NCBI GenBank assembly: GCA_964500825.1
Contig: CAZCQN010000041.1
Location: 1-17,505, forward strand
Direction: 5' to 3'
Source of the DNA: an uncultured Verrucomicrobiota bacterium
GTDB taxonomy: Bacteria > Auribacterota > JABMQX01 > JAFGEW01
Length of the DNA: 17,505 nucleotides
In this document: one piece after another, positions 1 to 16,296 of the stretch
How positions within the stretch are numbered: position 1 is the first letter of the stretch
How the letters are laid out: each line of letters starts with the position of its first letter
The notes under the pieces: generated by a model
Told to the model about the DNA's origin: nothing
The model's input: only the letters and a program-made list of their open reading frames with translations
The model's database searches: none
Translations under genes and position numbers: made by a program

Positions 1-3000
1 GAGAACACATCTTGCACGCTCGCGTGGTCGGCATCCGGCACCAGCGGCGTCGAGATGAAGAAGTCCTGCATCGTCCAGGTGATCTCCAAGTCGAGATCAA
101 ACACGCTGGCGGTCTGCCAGCTCGTGTTCGATCCGTCGCTGCGCTTGACGCGGTAGAAGCGGAAGTCGTGCGTCAGCGGGTTCGTCGAGAGGTCGTCCGT
201 GAAGCTGTCCTGCCCGGCCGTGCCGACGAGCACATCGCCCGGCAGCGAGTCCCACGTCAGGTCGTCCGCGTAGGCGTCGGCCTCGGCGCGCTCGAGGACG
301 TATTCGACGCCGTCGGCCGAAGCGAACGTCATGACCACCGACGTCGTCGCCTGGTCCCAATAGAGGTCCGTGATGTCGTCCGGCTTGTTGGGGTTGGTTC
401 GGTACACGAGCACCTCGTCGCCATCGGTCAGGCCGTCGTCGTCGGTATCGGGGTCAAGCGGATCGGTGCCCGTATCGTCCTCGCTCACGTAGAGGCCCGT
501 GTTCGTCTCGACGCCGTCGAGCAGTTGGTCGTCGTCGCTGTCCGGATCGGTCGGGTCGGTCCCGTGCGTATAGACCTCCTCCCCGTCGATCAAGCCGTCA
601 TCGTCGCTATCGTCGTCGTCGGGGTATGTGCCGGTGTCTTCTTCGCTCACGTACACGCCGGTGCCGGTCTCGACCGCGTTCGGCAGGCCGTCGCTGTCGT
701 CGTCGGGGATCTCGAAGGTGCCGGCCTCCTGGACCCTTTCGTTCCCGGCCGGGTCGCGCGAGAGCACGCGGTAGGAATAGGTCACGTTGTGCTCGAGCGA
801 ATCGACCACGACCGACGCCCACCGCGTGTACCAGCCCTCGTAGTCGGTCGAGAAGACGTAGCCGGGCCCGTACTCGACCCGGTGCTCGGCAAGCTCGTCG
901 GTTCCGGCCGGGTCGCGCGAGAGCACGCGGTTGGGATAGGTCACGTTGCGCTCGAGCGAATCGACCGGGACCGACGCCCACCGCGTGTACCGGCCGTCGT
1001 AGTCGGTCGAGAAGACGTAGCCGGGCCTGTACTCGACCCGATGCTCGGCGACCTCGTCGGTCTCCCAGGTGATGCGCACCCGGTGTGCCACGTACGGGTC
1101 GGCGGCAATGGACGAGATCGTGGGGGCGTCGGTGTCGGCGATCGGCGGCTCGCGAAACGGCGAGTAAAGCGGGTCGCCCACCAGCACCATCCGCCAATGT
1201 GTGTTGGCGATCGACGCCCACCACGCCTCGGCGGCCGTGTAGCCGCGGAAGAACCGGTCGTAGAAGATGCCGCCTGCCTGCATGGCGAACGTGTACGGCT
1301 CCCGGACGGCGCCGGCCGAGATCGTCGCGCCCCGCATCAGCATCTGGACCGTCCAGTTCGGGTCGTCGGGGTTGGTGAGGATATAGGCGCTCGCGGAGTC
1401 GAGATGCCAGGCGACGGAGCCCACCTTCAGGTACCCGTCGAAGATCGGCTGGAAGTTGTGGTACGAGTACCACCCGTAATAGAAAAGCGTGTTGTCGCAC
1501 GTGCCGTTCGGGAACATCGCGCTGTTCCTGTCAATGATCGTCTCGACGCCTTCCCACGCGATCCGCCCCCCAGCGGTCTCGATGAAACGCTCGGCGTGGT
1601 AGTAGTAGCCGCTTGTCAGGTTGGGCACCCGAGCGCGGAGGTCGATCCAGGCTTTGCCCGTCGTCGCGTCGAGATGGTGTTCGGCGTACAGCGCGCGATC
1701 CACAAGGCCCTTGGCGAGTTGGGCCGACGGCCCGCTCAAACGCGCGACCAGCAAGGTCCCGTAGGACGACGAGAAGCGCCCGTCTTCGAGGTAGTACGGG
1801 TTGTCGCTGCCGTAGTTGCCTCCCCAGCCCGGGTCGACCGTCCCGTACAGGTCGGCGAGCAGGCTGTCTACAGACCGAATGGTGTAATCGTCCTGATTCG
1901 CCATCAACGGGATGCCCCGCGTTGTGACAACATAGAGCAGCTTGTCCTCAAGGCCCCGTGCGGCGATATGGTCGCGAACAGGGTCCCGAATCGTCGAAAG
2001 GTAGCGGTCCCGCGAGATGAACGTGCCCGTTCCCGCAGAGATCGTCACGACGTTCTCGTCGGGCACGTTGCGCATGAGCTTGTAGTACGTGCCGATCTCG
2101 ACCGAGTCGGCCGAGTTCGAGTTGATGACGATAAGCACGCGCTCGTTGTCCGGCCAGCCGGGGATGCCTTCAGCCTCGGCCGACAGCTCGCTCACGTTGC
2201 CGGCTGCATCGAGCGCCTTGACCGCGTAGAAGTACTTCTGCTCCGGGACGCCGCTTGCGTCCTCGTAGTCGGCCTGTCCCGCGACGTCGTCCAGATGGCC
2301 CCACGAGCCGCCGTCGGGCTTACGCCAAATCTCATAGCCGGTGATATCCGGCTCCGTGTTCGGTTCCCACTTGAGGCAGACGCTCGTCTCCGTGTTCCAG
2401 GCGCGTAGCACCATCGGGGCCGCGGGCACCGTGTCGTCCTTCGAGATCGCGAACTGCAGCGACGACGCGCTGCTCTCGTTCGCGTTCTCGTCGTAGGCGC
2501 GGACCGCGTACTGGACCGCATCAACCTCGTTGAGCTGGTGCGTAAACGTCGTCTTGTTCGTCTCGCCGATCGGTGCCCCGTCGGCGAACACGCGGTAAAA
2601 GGCGACGTCGCCCGACGGGCTCGGATCCCAGGTGAGCACGTTCCGGAGGTAGTCGGTCGCCGTCGCCGTGAGCGTTGGCGGCGGATCAGGTGCTATCGAG
2701 TCGGCCGAGGCCAGCGTCGTCGCCGTTGCCACGTTCGACACGTCGGCGCTGTTGCCGTCCTCGTCGGTCGCCTTGAGCGCGAAGTAGTACGTCGCGTCGG
2801 CCTCGAGCCCAGTCACGGCCAGGCTCTCTGTCGAACCCGTCGGCTGGGGCACAAGCGACTGGTCGACGCGCCATGCAGTGTCCCAGCTCGTCTCGTCGAT
2901 CGGCGACGTGCTGTAGCGGACGTCGTAGGCAGCCGCCGTGCCCGTGCGGCCATCGTCGCCGGGTGCGGTCCAGCCGAGCATGATCGACTCGGCGGTCGGG

Positions 3001-4256
3001 CTCGACGCCGCGAGGTCGGCGACGCGTTTCGGCGGCATCCCGTCGGTCTTGCCGTGCCAGGCGAGCGACTTGCGGTGCACGTGGTAGCTGCTCTTCGTAA
3101 TGAACGCGAGCGCCCCGTCCGACAGCCGCTTGCGCCGGATGTGGTGGCGGTACTCCCAGACGTGGTGCGTCGCGTTCCACACCTTCTCGATCCAGATCCA
3201 GGCGAGCCATTCGCCGTGCGGCGAGAACGCCGGGGCGATCTCGTCCTGGCTCGTGCCGGCGCTCTGCTGCGTGAGACTGCCCCCGGCCGAGTCAACCGTA
3301 TAGATCTCCGTGCCTTGCGTCGACGACGTGTACGCATGGAACGCGATCAGCGACCCGTCCGGCGCGTACGCCAGGCGGCGCTCGTTGCGCGTGTTGCTCG
3401 TCAGGCACGTCAGGCCCGTGCCGTCCGGGTTGACCCGGTGGATCTCGTCCTTGCCCGGGCGATTGGTCACGAAGACCAGGTGGCTGCCGTCGCGCGCGAA
3501 CTCGGGCCACCGGTCGTTGTACGTGTCGTCGGTGACGGCGCGGTCGTTACCGCCGTCGAGGTCCATGATATGGATATCGCGCCGGCCGCCGCTCTCGTAC
3601 ACGTAGGCGACCTCGCCCGTCGTCGGCGAGACCGCCAGCCCGCGCTCGTAGACGTTCTGCGCGCGCAGGGTGACCAGCTCGTGGCTCGACCGGTCGAGCC
3701 GGCGGATCATGCCGTTCGCGATGAAGATCATGTACCGCCCGTCGGCCGTGAGCCTCGGCGCGGCGCAGTTCTCGCCGATCGCGCTCTCGCCCTCGACGTA
3801 GAGGACTTCCTGCTCGGGATCGGCGCCGTTGAGCGCGTAGGTGCTGTCGATGAGCCACGGGTTCAGGTAATAGAACTCGTCGCTCATGCGCGTAAACGTC
3901 AGGACGTTGAGCGTCTTGAGCGGCGTGACCGCCACCTCGGCCGAGTAAGCGCTTTGGTCCACGCCCTCGAGCGCGGTCACGACATAGTAGTAACTCGTGC
4001 CGTTCGCGAGGCCGGAGTCGAGGAGGAAGAGGTCTGTCGCCTCGCCCACCTCCACGTAGCCGCTCCCCGACTGCTCGGAGCGGTACAGCTTGTAGCTGGT
4101 CGCATCCGGCACCGGGTCCCAATAGAGCTCAGCCTGGGCGTCGCCGGTCGTGGCGTACAGGTCGGCAGGCGGCTCGACCGCCAGCGCGCCGGCGCACACG
4201 AGCGCGGTGCACACGAGCGCCAGGATCGAGACGACACAGAGCCACACGTTGTGCAT
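1..4256 (-). CDS. Very large secreted multidomain protein, 3' end (C-terminus) beyond window start. Domain order from the N-terminus: signal peptide; TolB-like PD40 beta-propeller repeats; several FN3-like domains; TIGR03790-like domain (motif ERVLIVINSNSADSVEIGTYYKLMRNVPDENVV); a duplicated FN3 half-domain; thrombospondin-type-3-like Ca-binding repeats (DDDSDGLPN, DDDDSDDDGLIDGEE, DPDSDDDQLLDG, DPDTDDDGLTDGDE).
   Basis: I translated the minus frame by hand. Codon first bases fall at positions congruent to 2 mod 3. The frame is open from ATG 4256-4254 to position 1, which is over 1400 codons. It is not in the ORF track because it has no in-window stop. The N-terminus MHNVWLCVVSILALVCTALVCAGALA|VEPP is a textbook signal peptide. 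PD40-like repeats are present, for example WPEFARDGSHLVFVTNRPGKDEIHRVNPDGTGLTCLT and LAYAPDGSLIAFHA. FN3-like YxYRV..D.aGN motifs are present. The + ORFs 12-2408 and 2538-4355 are arginine- and valine-rich and sit in exact codon register with this frame, which is typical of shadow ORFs. There is an alternative in-frame upstream ATG at 4322-4320, and a stop codon lies upstream of that at 4340-4338. Confidence 0.8.
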   Translation of the reverse strand, partial: MHNVWLCVVSILALVCTALVCAGALAVEPPADLYATTGDAQAELYWDPVPDATSYKLYRSEQSGSGYVEVGEATDLFLLDSGLANGTSYYYVVTALEGVDQSAYSAEVAVTPLKTLNVLTFTRMSDEFYYLNPWLIDSTYALNGADPEQEVLYVEGESAIGENCAAPRLTADGRYMIFIANGMIRRLDRSSHELVTLRAQNVYERGLAVSPTTGEVAYVYESGGRRDIHIMDLDGGNDRAVTDDTYNDRWPEFARDGSHLVFVTNRPGKDEIHRVNPDGTGLTCLTSNTRNERRLAYAPDGSLIAFHAYTSSTQGTEIYTVDSAGGSLTQQSAGTSQDEIAPAFSPHGEWLAWIWIEKVWNATHHVWEYRHHIRRKRLSDGALAFITKSSYHVHRKSLAWHGKTDGMPPKRVADLAASSPTAESIMLGWTAPGDDGRTGTAAAYDVRYSTSPIDETSWDTAWRVDQSLVPQPTGSTESLAVTGLEADATYYFALKATDEDGNSADVSNVATATTLASADSIAPDPPPTLTATATDYLRNVLTWDPSPSGDVAFYRVFADGAPIGETNKTTFTHQLNEVDAVQYAVRAYDENANESSASSLQFAISKDDTVPAAPMVLRAWNTETSVCLKWEPNTEPDITGYEIWRKPDGGSWGHLDDVAGQADYEDASGVPEQKYFYAVKALDAAGNVSELSAEAEGIPGWPDNERVLIVINSNSADSVEIGTYYKLMRNVPDENVVTISAGTGTFISRDRYLSTIRDPVRDHIAARGLEDKLLYVVTTRGIPLMANQDDYTIRSVDSLLADLYGTVDPGWGGNYGSDNPYYLEDGRFSSSYGTLLVARLSGPSAQLAKGLVDRALYAEHHLDATTGKAWIDLRARVPNLTSGYYYHAERFIETAGGRIAWEGVETIIDRNSAMFPNGTCDNTLFYYGWYSYHNFQPIFDGYLKVGSVAWHLDSASAYILTNPDDPNWTVQMLMRGATISAGAVREPYTFAMQAGGIFYDRFFRGYTAAEAWWASIANTHWRMVLVGDPLYSPFREPPIADTDAPTISSIAADPYVAHRVRITWETDEVAEHRVEYRPGYVFSTDYDGRYTRWASVPVDSLERNVTYPNRVLSRDPAGTDELAEHRVEYGPGYVFSTDYEGWYTRWASVVVDSLEHNVTYSYRVLSRDPAGNERVQEAGTFEIPDDDSDGLPNAVETGTGVYVSEEDTGTYPDDDDSDDDGLIDGEEVYTHGTDPTDPDSDDDQLLDGVETNTGLYVSEDDTGTDPLDPDTDDDGLTDGDEVLVYRTNPNKPDDITDLYWDQATTSVVMTFASADGVEYVLERAEADAYADDLTWDSLPGDVLVGTAGQDSFTDDLSTNPLTHDFRFYRVKRSDGSNTSWQTASVFDLDLEITWTMQDFFISTPLVPDADHASVQDVF
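741..1058 (-). repeat. In-frame tandem direct duplication inside the giant CDS. Two 159-bp units lie at about 741-899 and 900-1058, roughly 94% identical. Each unit encodes a 53-aa C-terminal half of an FN3-like domain (AEHRVEYxPGYVFSTDYxGxYTRWASVxVDSLExNVTYxxRVLSRDPAGxxE).
   Basis: Direct sequence comparison. The block ggccgggtcgcgcgagagcacgcgg... appears at 747 and again at 906. The period is 159, which is 3 x 53, and there are about 10 mismatches. The upstream-translated copy is slightly degenerate (YPNRV in place of YSYRV). Confidence 0.85.
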
Positions 4257-4558
4257 GCTGCTTCTCAGAGACCGCCCTCCCCCAGAAACTCGAATCAGGC
4301 AAGAAATAAGAGGCAGCTTCATTCCCGGTATCGGAAATCAACACCAATAGTATAGCACAATTCGCGCCGGCCTTCAACGCCGGATCAGCGCCTCGGGCGC
4401 TCCCTGAACAGAAAAGCCCACGGCCACCTGAAAAAGACGTTCCGCTGGTTGGAGTTTGGTGCGAGAATGGCACGAGGAGCGCCCCTCTCCGCAAGAGCCG
4501 CCGGCAGTGGGGCACATGACGGGGAAACGGCGCCTGCAGCGAAAGGAGGACGGTCAGG

Positions 4559-4945
4559 ATGCCCGAGACTGCCGACCACGCACTGGCAAGAAACGTCGGC
4601 TACTGCGGTCTCGTTTGCAGCGTCTGCCGCAACGTCCTCAAGGGCTGCACCGGATGCCGGAAGGGCGGCGGCTCCGAGGACTGCTACCAGCGCGAGTGCT
4701 GCGAGGAAAACGGACTCAACGGCTGCTGGGAGTGCGGTGAGTTCCCGTGCGACAAGGGCTTCTTCGCCGACGACGCATGGAAGGGCCTTTGCATCGGCTC
4801 GGTCCAGTGCATCAAGGACCACGGGCTCAGGCGCTACATCGAACTGGTCGCCTCGAGCCTGGGCAACGACGTCGAGTACGGCGATTACCGCTTCAAAGAC
4901 CCCGACGAGATCAGGGCGATCCTGGCCGGAGAACCGAGAGCGTAG
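4559..4945 (+). CDS. Small cysteine-rich protein of 128 aa. I recall it as DUF3795-like (GYCGLVCSVC..CTGC..C..C..CWECGEFPC), probably a metal or Fe-S binding protein.
   Basis: Complete ORF with a strong SD (aaaggagga) 8-10 nt upstream of the ATG. Codon usage has high GC3. The gene is divergent from the giant secreted-protein gene and lies 18 bp upstream of punA. Confidence 0.7.
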   Translation: MPETADHALARNVGYCGLVCSVCRNVLKGCTGCRKGGGSEDCYQRECCEENGLNGCWECGEFPCDKGFFADDAWKGLCIGSVQCIKDHGLRRYIELVASSLGNDVEYGDYRFKDPDEIRAILAGEPRA

Positions 4946-6840: not shown

Positions 6841-7293
6841 TCAGCCGGCATGCGCAGCGCCGCAGGTGCTGCGTTGCCACTGGCTTTGAGCCGGTGGTGT
6901 GCGAAAGAGCAGGTCAGCCCCACTCCCTCTCCCCGCCCTGCCCGCCACAAACGTCTGCAGCAGGCGGGCCCGATGCCGCCGCCAGCGGTCCCAGATGAGC
7001 ACGACGGGTCCGCGCACGTGAGCAAGCAACTGGCGCACAAAGGCTATCAGCTCGCCGGCGCGCAGGTTGGTGTCGGGGTGCAGACGAAAGCACAGCCGCA
7101 CCCGCTCGCGCCCGGGCGAGACCAACAGCGCGGCGATCGCCGACACCTTGCGGTGGTGGCGCGTGCGCTGATAGTGCAACGGCGTCTGGCCGCATGGCGC
7201 CCATGTGCGACGCACCAGCGGCGCCATCAAGAAACCGCTCTCGTCGACAAAGACCAAATGCGCCTTCAGCCGCGAGGCTTTTTTTTGATGCGC
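6841..7293 (-). CDS. IS630-family transposase OrfB, the DDE catalytic part. It is entered by a -1 frameshift from OrfA. The C-terminus appears short and possibly degenerate.
   Basis: This is the -1 frame relative to OrfA. It contains the first D (VFVDESG) and second D (LIWD) of the DDE triad. No acidic residue sits about 35 aa after the second D in this frame. A PAY-containing segment in the adjacent frame (6587..6880) suggests further frameshifts or decay at the 3' end. Confidence 0.6.
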   Translation of the reverse strand, partial: AHQKKASRLKAHLVFVDESGFLMAPLVRRTWAPCGQTPLHYQRTRHHRKVSAIAALLVSPGRERVRLCFRLHPDTNLRAGELIAFVRQLLAHVRGPVVLIWDRWRRHRARLLQTFVAGRAGRGSGADLLFRTPPAQSQWQRSTCGAAHAG

Positions 7294-7745
7294 GGCCAGT
7301 CGTGCTTGATCCAGTGGGCGATGGCCGCCTCGTCGCGCTCGAGCGCGCGGCGCTGGGGCTTTTGCGGCGAGAACCCCAGCCCGTGCAGGAGCCGTCCGAC
7401 ATGATCGACGTGGTAATGCACCCCAAACTGCGTTTCGATCAGCCGGGCCACGCGCGGGCAGGTCCACAGCTCCGTGGCGAAACCGGCGGCGCGGGCGCCT
7501 TTGAGCAACAGACGCACGAGGCGCTTTTGCGCCTTGGCATCGAGGCGGCAGGGGCGACCCGGCGCGGGGCAGGCCCTAAGGGCCGCCTCGCCCCGCTTGC
7601 GGTAGGCGGCCTTCCAGCGGCGCACGCTGCGTCGGTCGACGCCGAGCTGTTGGGCCACCTCGACCGGCTGCAGGCCCTTGGCCAACAACGCCACGGCGCG
7701 CCGCCTTCGCTCTTCGAGTTGTTGACCACTTCCTCGGGGTCGCAT
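7266..7745 (-). CDS. IS630-family transposase OrfA, the N-terminal HTH DNA-binding part.
   Basis: 159 aa. Strong SD GGAGGTGA 7 nt upstream of the ATG. Helix-turn-helix segments are present (QQLGVDRRSVRRWKAAYRKRGEAAL). The ORF ends in WPRIKKKPRG* at an A8 run. Confidence 0.8.
   Translation of the reverse strand: MRPRGSGQQLEERRRRAVALLAKGLQPVEVAQQLGVDRRSVRRWKAAYRKRGEAALRACPAPGRPCRLDAKAQKRLVRLLLKGARAAGFATELWTCPRVARLIETQFGVHYHVDHVGRLLHGLGFSPQKPQRRALERDEAAIAHWIKHDWPRIKKKPRG
7278..7287 (-). other. A AAA AAG slippery heptamer within an A8 run; candidate programmed -1 ribosomal frameshift site joining OrfA and OrfB.
   Basis: On the minus strand the sequence is ATC AAA AAA AAG CCT in the OrfA frame. 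Slipping back one nucleotide gives ...KK-ASRLKAHLVFVDESG in the OrfB frame. The same heptamer is the known dnaX/IS3-type -1 site. Confidence 0.55.
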
Positions 7746-8705: not shown

Positions 8706-9782
8706 CTACTTGGATACGATGCAGAACGCGCGGTCCGCCAGCGGCAGCGTCACCCGGTCGCCGCCGCGCCTGCCCGATTCGAACATGGCGAGCGCGAGCT
8801 CGAGGGCGGCGCGCGCATCCTCGGGCGTTGACGAGGAGTCGCCGCCGTGTTCGATCACGTCCACGAGCTCCTCGACCGCGAGCACGTACGGGTTGGTCTC
8901 GCCGGGCGGCGGCGAGGGGAACGCCGCGCGCCGCAGCTCGAAGAAGCCATCGTAGTGCGGGCTCTCGGCCGACTCGAATAGCTCGAGCACGCCGTTGTTG
9001 CCGATCCGGACCCGACCCTGCGAGCCGAGCACGTCGAGCTCGAACAAGAAGTAGTCCTTGCCGACGGCGTCCACGTGCGCGTAGGCGCCGCTCGCCATCT
9101 TGATCGTCGCGACGCTGTCGCCGTCACCGTTCTCGTCGCCGGGCACTGCATCCGCCCGCGCCCACGCCGCCTCGGCGTGCGGCCAGGTCGCGGCCGAGAC
9201 CCACTCAGCCGGGCCGGCGAGCCACAGGAGCGCGTCGAAGAAGTGCGTCCCGGTGTGGATCACGCGGCCGCCGAACGCGCCGCGGACCGACTGGAGCGCG
9301 CCGAGCCGGCCGTCGTCGACGAGCCCCTTGAGCGTGCGGAAGTCCCAGCACCAGCGCCGGCTGTGATTGACGGCCACCGCAATGCCGTGCGTGCGGCACA
9401 GCGCGACGAGCTCGTCGGCCTCGGCCAGGCTCGTCGCCAACGCCTTTTCACAAAAGATGCCGCGCACGCCGCACGCGGCCGCCGCACGGACCACGTCGAG
9501 CCGGACCGACGCCGGGGTGCAGATGCTCACGACGTCGGGCCGTTGCTCGTCGAGCATCCGCTCGAAATCGTCGTACGCGGCCGGGATATCGAAGCGGGTG
9601 GCGAACCGCTGCGCACTCTCCATCGTTCGGCTGGCGCACGCGACGAGGCGCGTCGCCTCGACCGCCTGGTAGGCGCCGGCGTGCGTGCTGGGGTGGCCGC
9701 GGCGCGAGTCCTCCTCGAGCCAACCGGCCATCCGGCCGCAGCCGACGATGGCGGCGCGTATCGTGGCGGCTCGAGCCGTCAT
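8706..9782 (-). CDS. Gfo/Idh/MocA-family NAD(P)-dependent oxidoreductase.
   Basis: N-terminal Rossmann motif AAIVGCGRMAG. The consensus EKP motif is replaced by CEKAL. DVVSICTP is present. The ATG overlaps the upstream gene's TGA as ATGA. Confidence 0.85.
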   Translation of the reverse strand: MTARAATIRAAIVGCGRMAGWLEEDSRRGHPSTHAGAYQAVEATRLVACASRTMESAQRFATRFDIPAAYDDFERMLDEQRPDVVSICTPASVRLDVVRAAAACGVRGIFCEKALATSLAEADELVALCRTHGIAVAVNHSRRWCWDFRTLKGLVDDGRLGALQSVRGAFGGRVIHTGTHFFDALLWLAGPAEWVSAATWPHAEAAWARADAVPGDENGDGDSVATIKMASGAYAHVDAVGKDYFLFELDVLGSQGRVRIGNNGVLELFESAESPHYDGFFELRRAAFPSPPPGETNPYVLAVEELVDVIEHGGDSSSTPEDARAALELALAMFESGRRGGDRVTLPLADRAFCIVSK

Positions 9783-10135
9783 CGGCGCCGCGCCTTGTTC
9801 CTGCGGCCGGCCGCTTCGTCGATCGTCATTTTCCGCACGACGCGCTTCACCTCGTCCATGATCTCGTCGCCGTTGGTCGTGGCGAATTTCTCGTCGAGGG
9901 CATCGTCGATTGCGGCGAGCAGCGCCGGGTCGAGCTGCGCCTCGGCGTCCGCGGCCAATGCGTCGCGTCCGACCGCTTCGACGATGGCCTCGTGCACGTC
10001 CCAGCGCTTGAGCCGCTCGAGGTGCCGCTCGGTCAGGCGAGTCCTGCCCGGTAAAAGCATGACGCCCTTGTCGTCAAACACCGGCAGCGCCAGGATCATG
10101 CCGGGCTCAAGTTCACTCAGGCTCAGTCGACCCAT
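9779..10135 (-). CDS. Small hypothetical protein of 118 aa. Its N-terminal domain (LEPGMILALPVFDDKGVMLLPGRTRLTERHLERLKRWDV) resembles the DUF3391-type module found ahead of HD-GYP domains.
   Basis: Complete ORF, first in the minus operon. Its stop overlaps the start of the downstream oxidoreductase gene. No clear SD; an alternative start exists at the internal ATG encoding GMILAL. Confidence 0.5.
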   Translation of the reverse strand: MGRLSLSELEPGMILALPVFDDKGVMLLPGRTRLTERHLERLKRWDVHEAIVEAVGRDALAADAEAQLDPALLAAIDDALDEKFATTNGDEIMDEVKRVVRKMTIDEAAGRRNKARRR

Positions 10136-10385
10136 CTGGTTTGCCTGCTCGTTTGTCGTGGGGACACGTCTTCCCGCCGAGGATTATGCAAGAGACATGC
10201 CACGGGGAGCGGGTGATGCCGCCGATCCGGTAGGACGTCGGGGTAGGTGGGGGCGAGACAGGGGATGTGGGCCTTTCCCACACTATGTGGGGCGTGTCGG
10301 GGCCAGCACCCGTACAGAGCGGCCACGAGAAGGATGGTACGGATATTGCATCCGATCCAGGTGAGCGAACTGTCCGGAGCCTCGC
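10136..10385. promoter_or_regulatory. Divergent intergenic region of 250 bp between the minus three-gene operon and the plus four-gene operon. It contains a GTGGG-CCTTT-CCCAC palindrome at 10267-10281, flanked by ATGTGGG direct repeats.
   Basis: Read from the sequence. Both flanking operons must start here. Confidence 0.3.
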
Positions 10386-11549
10386 GTGGCCAGAATCATC
10401 GACATCCACGCCGCGGCCGAGCTTCTGGCCGTGGACACCAAGACCGTCTACCGCCTCATCCAGAGCGGCGATCTGCCGGCGGCCAAGATCGGGCGCGTCT
10501 ACCGACTCTCGCAAGACGACGTCGAGCACTACTTCGAGCAGCGCAAAGCGGCCACGATGCGCGTGTTCCGAACGAACGGCAAGCGCGCGCGGGAGGGCGT
10601 ATCCGACGCGCCGACCGAGCGCCGGTGCTCCTGGTGCGGACGCGAGCTGGTCCTCAACTACTCGGTTGCCACGAAATGCGAAGAGCCGGGCTGCGAAGCG
10701 ACGATTTGTCGCACATGTGCCCGCTCGGGCGCGCTGACCCGGTGCCCGGTGCATGCGCGGCCCGCTGATCGCAACGACACGGTCGAGCAACTGCGCGCGG
10801 ACGGCTGCCTCGTCGTCGGGCGCGACGAGCTCTCCATCGAGGCGGCCGCCTATCTGTCCGAGGTCGCCGCGCGCTTCGAGCATTTGTCCGGCTGGCTCGA
10901 TGACGGCGCCGTCCTTCCGCGTGCGAAGCTCGTCGTGACGCTCCGGCAGCAGCCTTCGGCCGAGGCGTGGCTCGCCCTCGACGGCGAGGGCCCGGCGCCG
11001 TTCGACGCGGGCGTGGCACAGCGCGCGCGGATCCGGGCCGGCAAGACGCTGCTGCGGCTTCGGCTCGTACCGGCCGTTCATCGGCCGAGCTACGCGCGGC
11101 ACGGCTTCGACGTGCAGCCCTGCACGGCCGGCGACCTTCGCAGCGCCGTCGACGACGCGGCGCAGCCCCGCAGGCGCAGCGGCCAGTGTGTCGTTGCCGT
11201 GTGGTCACCGACCGGATGGACCGACCAGGCGGGTGCCCAGGCGACCGCCGGTCTGGGCGGCGGCGAGCAGGTCGTCCTTGCCGATCGGCCGGCTGGCCGC
11301 TGCATCGGCGCCGCGGGCCAGCTTGTGTACTTGCTCAACCCGCTTGCCGACGAGCCGACGCTTGCCGAGTGTGCCCAGTTTGTCCGCAACGAGCTCGCCG
11401 TGCGCTCGAGCGTCCGGCTCGACGCATTGACCGACGAAGGCGGCTTCCACCGCGAGATCGCCCAACGATGCTTCGACCGGCTCGCTGCGAACGGCGAGTA
11501 CGTGGTCGACCGATTCGACGACCTGGGCGCGGTGCTTTCGAGGCGCTAG
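10386..11549 (+). CDS. Excisionase/MerR-type HTH DNA-binding domain (HTH_17-like: LLAVDTKTVYRLIQSGDLPAAKIGRVYRLSQDDVEHYF), then a Cys-rich zinc ribbon (CSWCG...C..C...CRTC...C.VH), then a C-terminal domain of about 250 aa of unknown function. First gene of the four-gene operon.
   Basis: GTG start with GGAG 8 nt upstream. High-GC3 codon usage. The stop lies 3 nt before the next gene's ATG. Confidence 0.75.
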   Translation: MARIIDIHAAAELLAVDTKTVYRLIQSGDLPAAKIGRVYRLSQDDVEHYFEQRKAATMRVFRTNGKRAREGVSDAPTERRCSWCGRELVLNYSVATKCEEPGCEATICRTCARSGALTRCPVHARPADRNDTVEQLRADGCLVVGRDELSIEAAAYLSEVAARFEHLSGWLDDGAVLPRAKLVVTLRQQPSAEAWLALDGEGPAPFDAGVAQRARIRAGKTLLRLRLVPAVHRPSYARHGFDVQPCTAGDLRSAVDDAAQPRRRSGQCVVAVWSPTGWTDQAGAQATAGLGGGEQVVLADRPAGRCIGAAGQLVYLLNPLADEPTLAECAQFVRNELAVRSSVRLDALTDEGGFHREIAQRCFDRLAANGEYVVDRFDDLGAVLSRR

Positions 11550-11552
11550 CAA

Positions 11553-13061
11553 ATGGGTTTCTTGACGACACAGTGTCCGCACTGCGGCGCGCGCGTGCGC
11601 CGGACGAGCAACTTCTGCCCGTCGTGTGGCCAGCCGGCGCCGAGGCGTGCGGTCGTGTGCGGCCGCTGCCGCCGGTCGAGCGGGCCCGGCGCCAAGTTCT
11701 GCGCGCACTGCGGCGCCGAGCTGGCGCGGCACGGCAAGGCCACCGTCGTGGACAACCGATGGTCGCGCGCCGCCGACGAGTTCGCCGTCGTCCTCGAGAT
11801 CGACGATCTGAACGGCGTCCTGAGCAAGTCGCTCGTCGTCGAGCCGGGCACGCGTGCGCTCCTGTTCCGTGCCGACCGCCTCGTTGGCGTGCTCGAGCCG
11901 GGCGAGCACACGGTCGACAGCCTGCCGCGTCGGATCGCCGCGCTCGGGCGTGGCGCCCCGATGCTGGCCATCCTCGTCTCGGCCGACGACACGGCGGTCG
12001 AGCTCGACCTGCCGGAGGTGTGGACGGCCGACGAGCAGGCTGTTTCGGTCAAGGTGTTCCTCAGCGTGCGGCTCGTCGATCCCGACGTGTTCCGCCGCGA
12101 GGTGGTCCGCGAGCGATGGCGCGTGTTGCTCGACGACGTTCGCGCGCTGTGGCGCGCCGAGGGGGTGCCGGTCGTTGCCGAGATCGTCCGGCGCGAGACG
12201 CTCGAATCGCTCTGCGCGACGCCCGGCCTGCGCGAGGCGGTCGAACGCGAGCTGCGCGCCGAGCTCGATGCGACCTGCGCGCGAAGCGGTCTCGAGCTCG
12301 TGCAGCTCCGCTGCCTCGACTTCTACGGCAGCGCGTACGAGACGCTCCGGGCCGAGCGCGGCGAGGCGTTCCAGCTCACTCGGGCGCTCGATGTCTACCG
12401 GCGAGTTCACGACGAGCTCTCGGTCGAGCGGATCGCGCGCTTCCAATCCGAGCAGGAGTTTGAGCAGTTCGTGCACGAGGCCGAGCACCGCGCGGGCGTC
12501 AAGGCCCTGCTGCGGGAGCAGGAGGTCGAGGACTTCAAGCGCGCGTACCGCGAGCGCCTTGCACTCGAGAAAGCGAGGCGAGAGATCGAGCAGGGCGCGA
12601 TCGCCTTCGAGTCCGAACTCGAGAAACACAAAGCGCTCGACGAGCTCCGATGGGCCAAACGCGAGCGCGGCCTCGAGCTGCTCGAGAAGATCCGCGAACT
12701 GCGGCACCGTGAGCGCTTGCGCCGCATCGAGACCGACGAGCTCCGGCTCGACATCTACAGCCGGGCCACGATCGAGGCGCTCATCGCCATCCTCGACGAC
12801 GACCGCGCCGACCGGCTCGTCGAGCTGAAGAAGTTCCAGGAACAGACAAAGATGTCGCCCGAGCAGCTTCTGGCGCTCGTGGCGGCGAACTCGCCCGAGG
12901 CCGCGCGTGCGCTGGCGGAGCGGTATCGGGCCGAGTCGGCGATCTCGCCCGAGGCGTACGTGCAGGCGTGCGATCGGATCAACAGCGCCACCGCATCCGC
13001 CGCCGAGCCGGTGGAGGACGCGCCAACCGATCACGTCGAACTATACGAAGAGACCGAGTGA
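11553..13061 (+). CDS. Double zinc-ribbon (CPHCG..CPSCG; CGRC..CAHCG), then an SPFH/band-7 domain, then a long flotillin-like coiled coil.
   Basis: The SPFH signature is recognisable (LEPGEHTV..., TADEQAVSVKVFLSVRLVDPDVF, compare TKDN..V.VDAVVYYRVVDP). The C-terminal half is rich in heptad E/R/K/L repeats. Confidence 0.85.
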   Translation: MGFLTTQCPHCGARVRRTSNFCPSCGQPAPRRAVVCGRCRRSSGPGAKFCAHCGAELARHGKATVVDNRWSRAADEFAVVLEIDDLNGVLSKSLVVEPGTRALLFRADRLVGVLEPGEHTVDSLPRRIAALGRGAPMLAILVSADDTAVELDLPEVWTADEQAVSVKVFLSVRLVDPDVFRREVVRERWRVLLDDVRALWRAEGVPVVAEIVRRETLESLCATPGLREAVERELRAELDATCARSGLELVQLRCLDFYGSAYETLRAERGEAFQLTRALDVYRRVHDELSVERIARFQSEQEFEQFVHEAEHRAGVKALLREQEVEDFKRAYRERLALEKARREIEQGAIAFESELEKHKALDELRWAKRERGLELLEKIRELRHRERLRRIETDELRLDIYSRATIEALIAILDDDRADRLVELKKFQEQTKMSPEQLLALVAANSPEAARALAERYRAESAISPEAYVQACDRINSATASAAEPVEDAPTDHVELYEETE

Positions 13062-13066
13062 CGCCG

Positions 13067-14533
13067 ATGTCGTCGACGAGCCAGGAGAAGCACGTGACCA
13101 GGTGCCCGGCGTGCGGCCGTGCCGTGGGGCACGCGCGCTACTGCGAACACTGCGGCGCCCCACTGCCGGCCGAGGTCGCGGCGCGCGCCGACGCCCTTGC
13201 CGAGGCGGTGGCGCACGCGGGCAGTGTCCGGCTCGAGATCGACGCCGCGCGCGTTCTGCAGCAGCAGGCCGTCGGCGTGCTCGAGCTGCGGTTCACGAAC
13301 ACCGGCGCGCACGAGGTGCAGGTGGCCATGGTCGAGATCGACACGCCCGTCGTGGACACGCCGCTGCGGTGCATCGTGCGCGACATCCGCTGCGGCCGGC
13401 ACATGCCGCTGCGGTTCTCCGTGATCCCCCTGCGGCACGGCGAGGCCGTGTGCCGCGTGCGCGTCAAGGTGCTCGACACGGCGCAGACCTTCAACGTCTC
13501 GATGGGCGAGTTCACGATTGTGGTCAACCCGCCGCACGCCGAGGAAACGACGCTCCAGTTCGTGATCAAGGATAGCGACGTGGTGGGCGATTTCGAGAAC
13601 GTGTTCACGCAGAAGCGGCGCCGGCCGCGCGACGTGATGCAGCCGCGGCGCCGGGCGATGTGGGTGCCCGTCCGGCTCGTTGAGCAGGAGCGCCGCGAGG
13701 TCCGACCCGTGCCCAAGACCATCGTCGATGCCGGGCGTCTCGCCGGCGTCCCGCCGATCGAGAGCGCCGCCCTGCGCCTGCTCGAAGCGGGCGCGATGCG
13801 CACCGTGGCGCTGTTGGCCAAGCCGCAGCTCGCCTTCGGCCGGAGCGCGTGGCCGGACCCGTACAGCCGCGAGCAGAACGACGTCGTGCTCCGCCTCATG
13901 CCCGACTCGGCCGCCACGCGCGACCTGTCGCGCGGCATTCATCGGTTCGCCTTTCAACTGCGGGCGGGTGCAGACGACGTCGAGCTCATCCGGCTCGCGC
14001 GCCGCGAGGGGCGGATCGCCGTCGACTCAGTCGAGCGGCTCGTCGACGGCCAGGCGATCGACGTCGCCGGCCTCTTCGAGCTCGTGGCGCACATCGTGCG
14101 AGGCACGGACCCCTTCAGGTGGGAGCGCTTCGTCCTCCACCGGGAAACCGACCGCGCGCCGGAGATTGAGCTGGTGGAGGTGTGCGTCCCGAGCGCCGCC
14201 CAGGTGCTCAGCGTGGTGGTGCGCCGTTCCGACGAGGCGGCCGAGATCGAGGAATACGTCCAGGTGCGGCGGCACGTCACCATCGGCGCGTCGGCGCAGG
14301 CGGCCATCGTGCTGCGCGAGGGGGGCGTCGCGCCGACGCACGCGCGGCTCATCGCTCGGGGCGGCGTCTTCCTCATCGAGGACCTCAGCAGCGACGGCGG
14401 CACGTGGGTCAACGAGCGACGGCTCGGGCCGAACGAGCTCGCGCCGCTCGTCTACGGCGACCACCTGATGCTCGGCAAGGCGGCGATCGCCTTCGAACCG
14501 TTCCAGCAGCAATTCGGAGAGGACGAGGCGTGA
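13067..14533 (+). CDS. Zinc-ribbon (CPACG..CEHCG), then an Ig-like or unknown middle region with a possible degenerate FHA, then a C-terminal canonical FHA domain.
   Basis: The ATG lies 5 nt after the upstream stop. The C-terminal FHA reads VTIGASAQAAIVLREGGVAPTHARLIARGGVFLIEDLSSDGGTWVNERRL...GDHLMLG. The middle segment FGRS...DVVLRL...SRGIHRFAF resembles a second, degenerate FHA. Confidence 0.8.
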   Translation: MSSTSQEKHVTRCPACGRAVGHARYCEHCGAPLPAEVAARADALAEAVAHAGSVRLEIDAARVLQQQAVGVLELRFTNTGAHEVQVAMVEIDTPVVDTPLRCIVRDIRCGRHMPLRFSVIPLRHGEAVCRVRVKVLDTAQTFNVSMGEFTIVVNPPHAEETTLQFVIKDSDVVGDFENVFTQKRRRPRDVMQPRRRAMWVPVRLVEQERREVRPVPKTIVDAGRLAGVPPIESAALRLLEAGAMRTVALLAKPQLAFGRSAWPDPYSREQNDVVLRLMPDSAATRDLSRGIHRFAFQLRAGADDVELIRLARREGRIAVDSVERLVDGQAIDVAGLFELVAHIVRGTDPFRWERFVLHRETDRAPEIELVEVCVPSAAQVLSVVVRRSDEAAEIEEYVQVRRHVTIGASAQAAIVLREGGVAPTHARLIARGGVFLIEDLSSDGGTWVNERRLGPNELAPLVYGDHLMLGKAAIAFEPFQQQFGEDEA

Positions 14534-16296
14534 GTCCAGACACCTCAGGCACGCAGCGGCGACGCCCGCGCGATCCACTCGACGAGGCGACGACGTTCGT
14601 CGAGGGGCGCCCCATCGCGCAGCCGTTCGAGGTGGGCGACACGATCTCGGACCGCTACGTGCTCCGGGCCGGGCTTGGCCGCGGCGGGATGGGCGTCGTG
14701 TTCCGCGCCGACGACCTGCTGCTGGGCGAGCCGGTGGCGATCAAGATGATGAGCCCCGCGCTGCTGACGAGCGAGACGCTGTCGCGACGCTTCTTCGAGG
14801 AGGCCCGCATCGCCCGCCGGCTCAACCACGACAACATCATCCGGATCAACGACGTCGGCGAAACCAACGGCGTCAAATACATCACGATGGAGTTCGTCGA
14901 TGGCGTCTCGCTGCGCGAGTGGATCCGGGCGCACGCGCCCACGCGCGCCGCCCCGGAGCACCTCGCCGACGCGCTGTTCATCGTCCGCCAGATTTGCTCG
15001 GGGCTGCGGTACGCGCACCGCCACACGCTGCACCGCGACCTCAAGCCTGAGAACGTGCTGCTGAGCAAGGACGGCCAGGTCAAGATCGCCGACTTCGGCA
15101 TCGCGCGACTCAAGGAGGGCGCCGACTACACCGTCTCCAAGGCGCGGTTCGGCACGATGTACTACATCGCGCCCGAGCGCGTCGCGGGAACAGGCGACGA
15201 CGCCCGGTCCGACCTGTACTCGCTCGGCGTCGTCTTCTACGAGATGCTCACCGCCCGGCTGCCCGTCGGCCTGTTCGCGATGCCGACGGCGCTCGATCCG
15301 AAGCTGCCGGCCGTCGTCGACGAGATCGTGGCCAAGCTGCTCGCGTTCGCGCCGCGCGACCGCTACGCGTCGGCCGCCGACGTGCTGCTCAACCTCGACC
15401 GGCTCAGCGGCCGACACGTATGGGGCGAGACGCCTGCACCCACCGCTAAGAGCGGGACCGCTGGAAGCGGGGCCGCCGCGGAGGCCAAGGACAAGGCGAA
15501 GATGAGCGCGCGTTCGAAGCGCAAAGCCGTCGTCAAAACCGCCTCGGCAGCCGCTCGTCCGAAGGCGCGTCAACTGGCGCCGCCGGGCATGGTCCTGATT
15601 CCGGGCGGCACGTTCCAGATGGGGAGCGAGACCGGCGACGAGGACGAACGGCCGGTCCACATCGTCAGCGTCAAGCCGTTCACCATGGATCAGGCTCCCG
15701 TGACGAACGCGCAGTTCTTCGAGTTCCTTCAGGCCCGGCCCGAGTGGCGCAAGGCAGCCGCCGACCGTGCGCGCACCGACCGCGACTACCTCGCGCTGTG
15801 GAGCTACAACACGTATCCGCCCGAGCTACGCGATCATCCCGTCGTCTTCGTGAGCTGGTATGCGGCCAAGGCGTACGCCGAGTGGCGCGGCTGCCGGCTG
15901 CCGACGGAGGCCGAGTGGGAGTACGCCGCGCGCGGCGGGCTCGAGCAGCGCGACTTCCCCTGGGGCGACTTGCCCGACGCCGACCGGGCGCATTTCCACT
16001 CGAGCCTCGGGACCGTGCCAGTCAAGACGTTCCCGCCGAACGGGCACGACCTGTTCGACATGGCTGGCAACGTCTGGGAGTGGTGCGAGGACTGGTACGA
16101 CGAGGGCTTCTACTGCGAGCTCCGGGACGGTGTCGAGAACCCGCTGTGCAGCAGCTCGGCCAGCGGCCTCAAGGTAATCCGGGGCGGGGCGTGGTGCTAC
16201 TACGCGTACGTGATGCGCTGCGCCTTCCGCAGCGGCTTCCCACCGCATGCGGCCGACATCAACGGTGGGTTCCGGTGCGCTCGCAGCCTCGCGTAA
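14530..16296 (+). CDS. Hanks-type Ser/Thr protein kinase fused to a C-terminal FGE-sulfatase (SUMF1/formylglycine-generating-enzyme-like) domain.
   Basis: The GTG start overlaps the upstream TGA as GTGA. Kinase motifs are GRGGMGVVFRA, VAIKMM, HRDLKPENVLL, DFGIA and APE. A Lys/Ala-rich linker follows. FGE-like motifs are GGTFQMGS, RPVHIVSV, VSWYAAKAYAEWRGCRLPTEAEWEYAARGG, GNVWEWCEDWY and IRGGAW. Confidence 0.9.
   Translation: MSPDTSGTQRRRPRDPLDEATTFVEGRPIAQPFEVGDTISDRYVLRAGLGRGGMGVVFRADDLLLGEPVAIKMMSPALLTSETLSRRFFEEARIARRLNHDNIIRINDVGETNGVKYITMEFVDGVSLREWIRAHAPTRAAPEHLADALFIVRQICSGLRYAHRHTLHRDLKPENVLLSKDGQVKIADFGIARLKEGADYTVSKARFGTMYYIAPERVAGTGDDARSDLYSLGVVFYEMLTARLPVGLFAMPTALDPKLPAVVDEIVAKLLAFAPRDRYASAADVLLNLDRLSGRHVWGETPAPTAKSGTAGSGAAAEAKDKAKMSARSKRKAVVKTASAAARPKARQLAPPGMVLIPGGTFQMGSETGDEDERPVHIVSVKPFTMDQAPVTNAQFFEFLQARPEWRKAAADRARTDRDYLALWSYNTYPPELRDHPVVFVSWYAAKAYAEWRGCRLPTEAEWEYAARGGLEQRDFPWGDLPDADRAHFHSSLGTVPVKTFPPNGHDLFDMAGNVWEWCEDWYDEGFYCELRDGVENPLCSSSASGLKVIRGGAWCYYAYVMRCAFRSGFPPHAADINGGFRCARSLA

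Follow-up and report, generated by a model that had tools for sequence, protein, structure and literature searches.

A four-gene operon encoding SPFH, double-FHA, kinase and winged-helix proteins as a putative compact form of a module recurring in Planctomycetota

Four adjacent genes, termed G1 to G4, occupy positions 10386-16296 of contig CAZCQN010000041.1 (assembly GCA_964500825.1, labelled as an uncultured Verrucomicrobiota bacterium). The whole stretch analysed, 17,505 nucleotides with a G+C content of 62-72%, is hereafter called the window. Judging from domains and gene order, the four genes represent a compact form of a module found throughout Planctomycetota, with a sigma-54-type promoter in the present case. 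The conserved core of the module appears to consist, in this order, of a soluble coiled-coil SPFH protein with two zinc ribbons, a protein with a beta-sandwich and two FHA domains, and a Hanks-type kinase that is predicted to be active. The core kinase often carries a predicted non-catalytic domain with the FGE/C-type-lectin fold, and a protein of the G1 type, with a helix-turn-helix (HTH) domain, seems to be the usual added partner. The favoured reading, which is given a probability of about one half, is that of a cytoplasmic, phosphorylation-controlled SPFH scaffold or adaptor module tied to membrane remodelling or repair of the ESCRT-III type. The gene structure, domains, neighbourhood and promoter motif from which this reading starts were observed directly.

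All four genes are on the plus strand: G1 (10386-11549, 387 residues, GTG start), G2 (11553-13061, 502 residues), G3 (13067-14533, 488 residues) and G4 (14530-16296, 588 residues, GTG start). The junctions, read directly from the sequence, are TAG-caa-ATG between G1 and G2 (3 nt), TGA-cgccg-ATG between G2 and G3 (5 nt), and a GTGA stop/start overlap of 4 nt between G3 and G4. They bear out the proposal, made in a previous reading of the DNA letters (the sequence-only reading), that the genes form one translationally coupled operon. The orthologous loci L001 and L004 have equally tight junctions of +3, -1 and -4 nt. The HTH_17, zinc-ribbon, Band_7, FHA, Pkinase and FGE-sulfatase domains recognized in the sequence-only reading passed the Pfam thresholds. 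G1-G4 are devoid of any hydrophobic stretch that could form a membrane helix or a signal peptide, so that the whole module, including the FGE domain of the kinase, is predicted to be cytoplasmic. A role of the kinase as a membrane sensor is accordingly not supported.

The depth of the module in the bacterial tree was obtained from a search with G2 and a scan of genomes, as word-based searches with G1 and G3 reached a narrow clade only. Among 5.8 billion proteins, full-length homologues amount to only 12 clusters for G1, all at least 55% identical, and to 9 clusters for G3, all at least 55-60% identical. Full-length relatives of G2 were found at 29-36% identity, and the family extends across Phycisphaerae and Planctomycetia at 23-36% identity. 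The scan of one genome per species with an alignment of nine G2 sequences produced 47 non-redundant loci, nearly all labelled Planctomycetota. The labels are those of metagenome-assembled genomes; a few of the 47 are unexpected (Mollicutes, Anaerolineales, Kuenenia) and some may be mis-binned. L001, from the public genome closest to the window, is separate from the 47 loci and is labelled Verrucomicrobia. A viral origin was rejected after a search of 2.9 million viral contigs yielded no G2 relative.

The 47 loci, gathered via the SPFH gene, were mapped by phmmer with the window proteins and proteins of the first distant loci as queries. Since these were single-sequence searches of six-frame open reading frames (ORFs), the counts are lower bounds. 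Of the 38 loci whose sequence continues for 1.6 kb or more past the SPFH gene, 22 have a G3-type FHA gene as the next one downstream. The 47 loci include 31 that encode a Ser/Thr kinase, 18 with an FGE-sulfatase domain, which is often part of the kinase, and 16 with a member of the G1 family. Where both flanks are long (19 loci), the kinase was found 16 times, the G1 family 14 times and the FHA protein 13 times. The most conserved part of the module is the SPFH-FHA pair, not the HTH protein. L007 contains homologues of all four genes in the order of the window, with unrelated flanks and with an ESCRT-III-like gene inserted between the G1 and G2 homologues. The arrangement is not fortuitous, given that independent lineages keep the four families in this order among different flanking genes. 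The four genes could have been a peculiarity of one genome; they do co-occur elsewhere, and the conservation of the neighbourhood extends across Planctomycetota.

G2 is the candidate scaffold. Its N-terminus consists of two zinc ribbons, which stand in place of a membrane segment (11574-11711; C8, C11, C22, C25 and C36, C39, C50, C53; Pfam Zn_Ribbon_1 E = 6e-9, DZR E = 1.2e-8). The ribbon cysteines are invariant or nearly so in 18 sequences, down to 23% identity. The SPFH/Band_7 domain (PF01145) spans residues 95-262 (11835-12338), with an E-value of 3e-7 and 31.2 bits for a gathering cut-off of 23.6, and is on record for homologues too. It precedes a highly charged helical region resembling a coiled coil (residues ~265-430, 12345-12842). 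Residues 270-440 (171 residues) comprise 40 Asp/Glu and 35 Lys/Arg, and a coiled coil is presumably formed in this charged helical stretch of about 170 residues. Further on is a conserved C-terminal helix, with the motif MSPEQLLAL-AA-SPEAARALAE-Y (12858-12932). This motif, the ribbons and a VVEPGT motif are all that is conserved family-wide in the alignment. No membrane anchor, either N-terminal transmembrane segment or hairpin, was found in G2, where the maximum Kyte-Doolittle mean over 19 residues is 1.19. By analogy with the SPFH superfamily, G2 may assemble into oligomeric rings or cages. The family opens with a conserved M-G-(L/F)-(F/L) motif (11553-11564 in the window) and the Snf7-like family encoded in related loci with M-x-L-F-K-S-K; the two openings may amount to a common motif for membrane insertion or recognition.

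G3 begins with a zinc ribbon (C13, C16, C26, C29; 13103-13153) that remains below the Pfam threshold (E = 0.016), yet C13, C16 and C29 are nearly invariant and C26 is kept in the aligned full-length homologues. The ribbon is retained in Phycisphaerae-type relatives. It is followed by an all-beta, sandwich-like domain (residues 54-154, 13226-13528) with eight strands in the AlphaFold model, where the predicted local distance difference test (pLDDT) is 60-76; the L007 homologue can be aligned over this domain. Taken as a whole, the model is of low quality (pLDDT 46.9) and unfit for a fold search. For the region of residues ~245-345 (13799-14101), the comparison of a family profile with the PDB returned FHA structures only (Rad53 FHA1, 1.4e-5; CHFR, 1.7e-5). 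Pfam detects an FHA domain at the equivalent position in the L007 homologue. From these two matches, G3 is predicted to have two FHA domains. What had been an unknown middle region of the protein can now be described as a beta-sandwich and a second FHA domain. No match was obtained by hhalign between the middle region and the C-terminal FHA domain of G3 itself.

In the middle FHA domain, G258-R259-S260 is invariant and S288-R289 is present, but members of this clade have a displaced His and a shorter NG loop; the Planctomycetia relatives have canonical phospho-Thr motifs. The C-terminal FHA domain (residues 404-470, 14276-14476; PF00498, E = 3.7e-12, 46.9 bits) is devoid of the canonical Arg and Ser: G-A-S replaces G-R, and the SRxH motif is absent in every family member. 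The FHA of G3 also matches the YscD cytoplasmic-domain family in Pfam.

G4 consists of a Hanks-type Ser/Thr kinase, a Lys/Ala-rich linker and an FGE-sulfatase domain of C-type-lectin fold. The kinase domain (14665-15429; Pfam Pkinase E = 1.7e-45, 155.9 bits) has a complete set of catalytic motifs, GLGRGG (residue 48), VAIK (69), HRD (168), DFG (188) and APE (214), and by these motifs G4 can be classified as a Hanks-type Ser/Thr kinase. The FGE-sulfatase domain (15583-16284) is recognized with an E-value of 1.1e-64 and 219 bits (PF03781). In FGE enzymes, the catalytic Cys pair (CxxxxC) binds copper. Upon alignment with the FGE from S. coelicolor (2q17/6muj), the LCHDSYC sequence corresponds to WCYYAYV in G4, with the first Cys kept and the second replaced by Val. 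As only the first catalytic Cys is retained, the domain is probably non-catalytic and has a binding role. G4 was therefore rejected as an FGE enzyme for want of the second catalytic Cys, although the fold family fits. The C-terminal segment of the FGE domain is identical in clade orthologues of 78-83% overall identity and is hence not hypervariable. G4 was also rejected as the target of a diversity-generating retroelement (DGR): the window contains no repeat of the 3' end of G4, no template repeat (TR) and no reverse transcriptase (RT), and the segment is not diversified. Ahead of the kinase domain, the segment DPLDEATTFVEGR (14572-14610) is conserved in three clade orthologues and absent from L007. 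It has two adjacent Thr with a hydrophobic residue at position +3, and is a plausible candidate for a phospho-Thr docking site of an FHA domain.

G1 has four parts in its AlphaFold model (pLDDT 76.6). The N-terminal one is an excisionase/MerR-type HTH of the Xis/BldC type (residues 10-53, 10413-10544; Pfam HTH_17 E = 1.3e-13), for which Foldseek returned Xis, BldC and RacA. It is followed by a zinc module (residues 81-123, 10626-10754) with the ligands C81, C84, C98, C103, C108, C111, C120 and H123, all eight of them invariant in 12 aligned homologues. Eight ligands are enough for two predicted metal ions. In the sequence-only reading, three of the four proteins opened with CxxCG...CxxCG ribbons; this holds for G2, which has two, whereas the module of G1 comes after the HTH and is not a simple ribbon. 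The central alpha/beta domain (residues ~145-320, 10818-11345) matches no solved structure, and the C-terminal domain is a winged helix (residues ~322-387, 11349-11546). The central domain of G1 and the C-terminal SPEAARALAE motif of the SPFH protein are two uncharacterised domains defined here.

A sensitive search with the C-terminal part of G1 (G1-C) reached 52 representative distant clusters. The fusion partners in the 54 G1-C family sequences scanned were HTH_17 (30), Pkinase (5), CHAT (2) and Peptidase_C25 (2), and some relatives have no HTH and bear a CHAT or Peptidase_C25 (caspase-like) protease instead. L009 and L024 encode fusions of a kinase, an HTH and G1-C. In L014, L020 and L027, the HTH gene is shortened to ~130-146 residues, with most or all of G1-C gone. 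As there are both HTH genes lacking G1-C and G1-C relatives lacking the HTH, DNA binding is not a constant feature of the family. G1 had been put forward as the transcriptional output of the operon. The HTH_17 domain agrees with it, but the extra C-terminal winged helix and the fusions to kinase, CHAT and Peptidase_C25 make a purely transcriptional role doubtful. A 329-residue protein of L010 that was examined as an HTH-less relative of G1 is actually a lipoprotein of another family.

The link to membrane remodelling comes from further genes in the relatives. Over the 47 loci, an ESCRT-III-like paralogue was found 11 times, an AAA+ protein 11 times and a Snf7-like protein 10 times. The profile of the Snf7-like family matches CHMP3 over almost its full length (E = 5e-4) and Snf7 with an E-value of 0.55; the Pfam Snf7 domain is on record for the L009 gene. 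The second paralogue is more divergent, and was related to the Snf7-like family by hhalign with a probability of 90% (E = 1.7e-6). Each Snf7-like or paralogue gene is adjoined by that of a single-domain classical AAA+ ATPase. AAA_lid_3 is present in most copies and Vps4_C scores above the cut-off only in L007 and L031; no MIT domain was detected in the AAA+ proteins of the relatives. The extra genes also encode a protein with an N-terminal membrane segment and two families of secreted proteins or lipoproteins. Pairs of Snf7-like and AAA+ genes, often two in tandem, stand beside the SPFH gene in L007 (1226-2959) and L009 (3456-6915), and further such loci are L014, L018, L020, L024, L026, L027, L031, L040 and L041. 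The deposited annotation of L009 omits the AAA+ ORFs and the ORF of the kinase-HTH fusion.

The steps between the proteins and the cellular function that we infer are as follows. Binding of a ligand or a protein by the FGE-like domain would elicit a response of the cytoplasmic kinase, which would phosphorylate Thr residues on itself or on its partners, a candidate site lying in the N-terminal ATTFVEG segment. The FHA protein would read the phospho-marks and bridge the kinase to the SPFH protein, and the bridging would control how the SPFH protein assembles into an oligomeric scaffold on the inside of the cytoplasmic membrane. The HTH/winged-helix protein, in some lineages part of one polypeptide with the kinase, may be a kinase-coupled adaptor or regulator. 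The most likely output would be the recruitment or regulation of membrane remodelling or repair of the ESCRT-III type, because sister lineages encode the scaffold beside Snf7-like and AAA+ pairs, a membrane protein and lipoproteins. Precedents in favour of it are the placement of PspA by YdjI in B. subtilis and the composition of archaeal ESCRT loci, both described below.

Several points weigh against this reading. Neither the window nor the 10 kb on each side of the L001 and L004 operons contains a Snf7-like or AAA+ gene, so that the link to membrane remodelling is one of family association and not of local context. Indeed, none of the extra genes of the relatives (ESCRT-III-like, AAA+, membrane protein and lipoproteins, DGR) is found in the window or in the loci of its clade. 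The Pfam Snf7 match is below the gathering threshold in several loci, with ~20 bits in L014 and L024 for a threshold of 27.3, and the AAA+ proteins are closest by sequence to the D2 domain of Cdc48/p97 in the PDB, not to Vps4. The SPFH assignment of G2 depends on a modest Pfam score, and its family profile matched no SPFH chain when compared by sequence with the PDB. The reading of phospho-marks by G3 is not assured, as the C-terminal FHA domain lacks the residues that bind phospho-Thr and the middle one is degenerate beyond G-R. Planctomycetes encode many kinases, which makes the presence of a kinase within 10 kb weaker evidence than the adjacency of the FHA gene. Lastly, the contigs with orthologues of G1 and G3 agree not only in the four genes and their junctions but also in what surrounds them (FlgN, oxidoreductase and cold-shock protein, with chemotaxis genes at a greater distance upstream). 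As the flanks are shared too, the exact conservation of the four genes is ordinary synteny in a narrow clade and adds little independent evidence.

The sequence-only reading likened the pairing of SPFH and zinc ribbon to the pspA-ydjGHI operon of B. subtilis, in which PspA depends on the SPFH protein YdjI for its membrane localisation (Scholz et al. 2021, PMC8581546). The context of this membrane-stress module was surveyed by Ravi et al. 2024 (PMC11237479). The likeness gains support from context, the SPFH family adjoining genes of the Snf7/ESCRT-III superfamily in distant relatives. In both cases, an SPFH protein without the classical flotillin-type anchor is encoded in an operon with zinc-ribbon proteins, and there is a tie to the ESCRT-III superfamily, relatives of G2 sharing loci with Snf7-like genes. 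Unlike the B. subtilis operon, the module has no PspA_IM30, no YdjG-type protein with NTF2 and transmembrane domains and no TPM-domain YdjH. Its zinc ribbons are fused to the SPFH protein, and the additional components are a Ser/Thr kinase, a protein with two FHA domains and one with an HTH and a winged helix. No ESCRT-III-like gene is present within the 17.5-kb window. Membership in the PspA-YdjGHI system was rejected, since Pfam scans of the four proteins and their neighbours revealed no YdjG or YdjH domain and there is no PspA gene.

Archaeal ESCRT loci carry genes for FHA, Ser/Thr kinase and winged-helix proteins, and for SPFH proteins with coiled coils and zinc ribbons (PMC10936438). The long forms of the planctomycete module hold the same parts around ESCRT-III and AAA+ genes as the archaeal Halo_FHA, 'main' and Meth_adaptin loci. 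They differ in being bacterial, in having AAA+ proteins nearest to Cdc48 D2, with Vps4_C in two loci only, and in showing no MIT, CdvA or adaptin-appendage domain. The window itself has the scaffold and signalling genes only. The likeness is one of parts lists, and may reflect either homology of the whole system or convergent assembly from the same domains. With no ESCRT-III gene in the window and an ambiguous assignment of the AAA+ proteins of the relatives, the module is not a demonstrated ESCRT system. It is nevertheless conceivable, as a tentative proposal, that Planctomycetota have their own phylum-wide ESCRT-like system, of which the window genes would be the scaffold and signalling half. 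The parts would be two Snf7-like paralogues, each with an AAA+ ATPase of the Cdc48/Vps4 clade, together with an SPFH scaffold that has a coiled coil and zinc ribbons, a double-FHA adaptor, Ser/Thr kinases and a winged-helix protein. The four genes would then have ESCRT-III-like partners encoded at other sites of the genome, and would take part in division, budding, the formation of vesicles or membrane repair. According to Makarova et al. 2024, ESCRT parts other than PspA/Vipp1 are not found in bacteria (PMC10936438); the proposal, if true, would mean that a parts list mirroring the archaeal systems exists where it is currently said to be absent.

Two other comparisons were drawn. In the PpkA/Fha1(TagH) pair of type VI secretion systems (T6SS) and in mycobacterial PknB with FhaA/FhaB, a kinase stands beside an FHA scaffold that probably gates the assembly of a membrane-associated complex. 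The module likewise has a Hanks-type kinase beside an FHA protein, and the best NCBIfam matches of the C-terminal FHA domain of G3 are TagH and FhaB. These matches reach only 38 bits for cut-offs of 120 and 125. The module further differs in that it has no genes for a T6SS or the cell wall, in that its kinase is confined to the cytoplasm, and in that G3 has two FHA domains, a zinc ribbon and a beta-sandwich. With known fusions of Ser/Thr kinase and FGE-sulfatase domains, which include targets of DGRs (Wu et al. 2018, PMC5758913), G4 shares the combination of a kinase and a C-terminal FGE domain that is probably used for binding, and DGRs adjoin related modules in L010 and L017. It differs from these targets in that the FGE domain of the window is undiversified and identical in orthologues, with no TR or RT. 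Where a DGR (bAvd and RT) abuts a related module in L010/L011, the repeats are at 54-174 and 1664-1784 of L010; the mismatches between TR and variable region fall at template adenines. The variable region is the C-type-lectin/FGE-type end of another, truncated upstream gene. In L017, Avd-like ORFs (2360-2752 and 4315-4707) follow two genes that end with an FGE domain, one of which is an FHA-FGE fusion.

The combination was said in the sequence-only reading not to be a named system, and this was confirmed: no NCBIfam equivalog model is reached at its cut-off by any of the four proteins, and PADLOC returned only generic matches to HTH and kinase domains. The closest description that the comparisons suggest is that of kinase/FHA-regulated SPFH scaffolds linked to proteins of the ESCRT-III superfamily. 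Planctomycetes have unusual membrane invaginations, and SPFH proteins, ESCRT-III/PspA and kinase-FHA pairs are each regulators of membrane organisation. Planctomycetota have no FtsZ and divide by an unknown mechanism (PMC6952346). A literature search found no description of a planctomycete SPFH-FHA-kinase module, and no paper pairing 'Planctomycetota' with 'Snf7'. Within the literature searched, the phylum-wide combination of SPFH, ESCRT-III and kinase-FHA thus appears undescribed. The module provides concrete and testable candidates for membrane remodelling or repair in planctomycetes, and the compact four-gene form, with kinase, FHA reader, SPFH scaffold and winged-helix adaptor, lends itself to reconstitution.

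Upstream of G1, a sigma-54-type -24/-12 promoter, TGGTACGGATATTGCA (10335-10350, plus strand), ends 35 nt before the start codon. A second match (10187-10202, minus strand) faces an operon comprising a small ORF, a Gfo/Idh/MocA oxidoreductase gene and the FlgN gene. The window contains no other match to TGGYAYGN4TTGCW, where 0.00 would be expected by chance. The two matches share the 250-bp region upstream of G1, and each falls in a sequence block that does not vary among four orthologous loci with a protein identity of only 55-63%. The match facing G1 is found exactly in L001 and L003. By consensus and conservation, it is the putative promoter that drives the operon here. No strict match was found at distant members of the module, no gene for an enhancer-binding protein or activator was seen near the operon, and a simple scan for sigma-70 promoters and terminators gave nothing useful.

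This arrangement bears on an alternative reading, according to which the operon is a self-contained transcriptional cascade: the kinase would sense, the FHA protein would relay, G1 would be the DNA-binding output and the SPFH protein an accessory, with no link to ESCRT-III. G1 is the first gene of the operon, behind the conserved promoter region, and its product combines a clear HTH_17 match with a winged helix. The window and the orthologous loci have no nearby ESCRT-III-like gene, and the kinase-G1 fusions would suit a one-component pairing of kinase and regulator. However, the truncations in L014, L020 and L027 and the HTH-less relatives of G1-C mean that DNA binding is not constant in the family, the SPFH-FHA pair is more conserved than the HTH, and no operator-like element could be assigned to G1. 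The cascade is considered unlikely.

Somewhat less likely again is an anti-phage or conflict system, in which the FGE/C-type-lectin domain of the kinase would recognise an invader and phosphorylation would trigger defence through the FHA and SPFH proteins. FGE-sulfatase is the commonest class of binding domain diversified by DGRs, with one kinase fusion known (PMC5758913). A verified DGR stands beside the related module in L010/L011, and Avd-like genes come after the FGE-ending genes of L017. The fusions of G1-C relatives to CHAT and Peptidase_C25 proteases and the PADLOC matches to mad1, mad6 and PD-T4-6 point the same way. These matches and those to NCBIfam models are at the level of domains only and well short of the family cut-offs, with 38.2 bits for a cut-off of 80 in the case of MAD1 and 160 for 460 in that of MAD6. 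With only generic HTH and kinase matches, and no methyltransferase or other mad gene in the window, membership in the methylation-associated defence system (MADS) was rejected, as was that in PD-T4-6. No nuclease, toxin or NADase effector is present. The constancy of the FGE C-terminal segment among orthologues and the absence of TR and RT from the window, both presented above, weigh against this reading. The module appears to be vertically inherited across the phylum, and the lack of G2 relatives in viral contigs also speaks against defence. The flanks are housekeeping genes, syntenic across the clade, and nothing like a defence island.

Improbable as well is a clade-specific role in a flagellar or swimmer-cell programme, in which the operon would be controlled jointly with the divergent FlgN operon and would organise the membrane for the flagellum or the cell cycle. 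In favour of it, two divergent sigma-54-type promoters facing G1 and the FlgN operon share one 250-bp intergenic region, L001, L003 and L004 have genes for chemotaxis and flagella on their upstream side, and the FHA of G3 has its YscD match. The association is, however, limited to the narrow syntenic clade; distant members lie among unrelated genes and lack a strict sigma-54 match. A gene for an enhancer-binding protein was not seen in the vicinity, and the promoter type does not discriminate between the readings, as the psp operon of E. coli likewise depends on sigma-54.

The other genes upstream in the window encode a DUF3795 protein, a purine nucleoside phosphorylase, an orotidine monophosphate decarboxylase, a split IS630-type transposase, FlgN and the oxidoreductase. 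The small ORF of the FlgN operon (9779-10135, minus strand, 118 residues) is directly downstream of the minus-strand sigma-54-type promoter; it has no Pfam match and is found at the same position, with 100-116 residues, in L001-L004. The transposase (6841-7745, minus strand) is in two overlapping ORFs, with HTH_33/HTH_32 at 7266-7745 and DDE_3 at 6841-7467. Since CheX, CheY and HDOD genes occupy this position in L001 and L004, the site is probably a recent point of insertion or rearrangement. Downstream of the operon are a cold-shock protein gene and then a gene whose L001 counterpart has a prepilin-type N_methyl domain and SBP_bac_10. At the other end, a secreted protein of at least 1445 residues (3-4337, minus strand) runs off the start of the window and has fn3, PD40 and bacterial TSP3 repeats; its gene contains a tandem duplication of 159 nt (739-1056) and shorter Asp-rich repeats (414-708).

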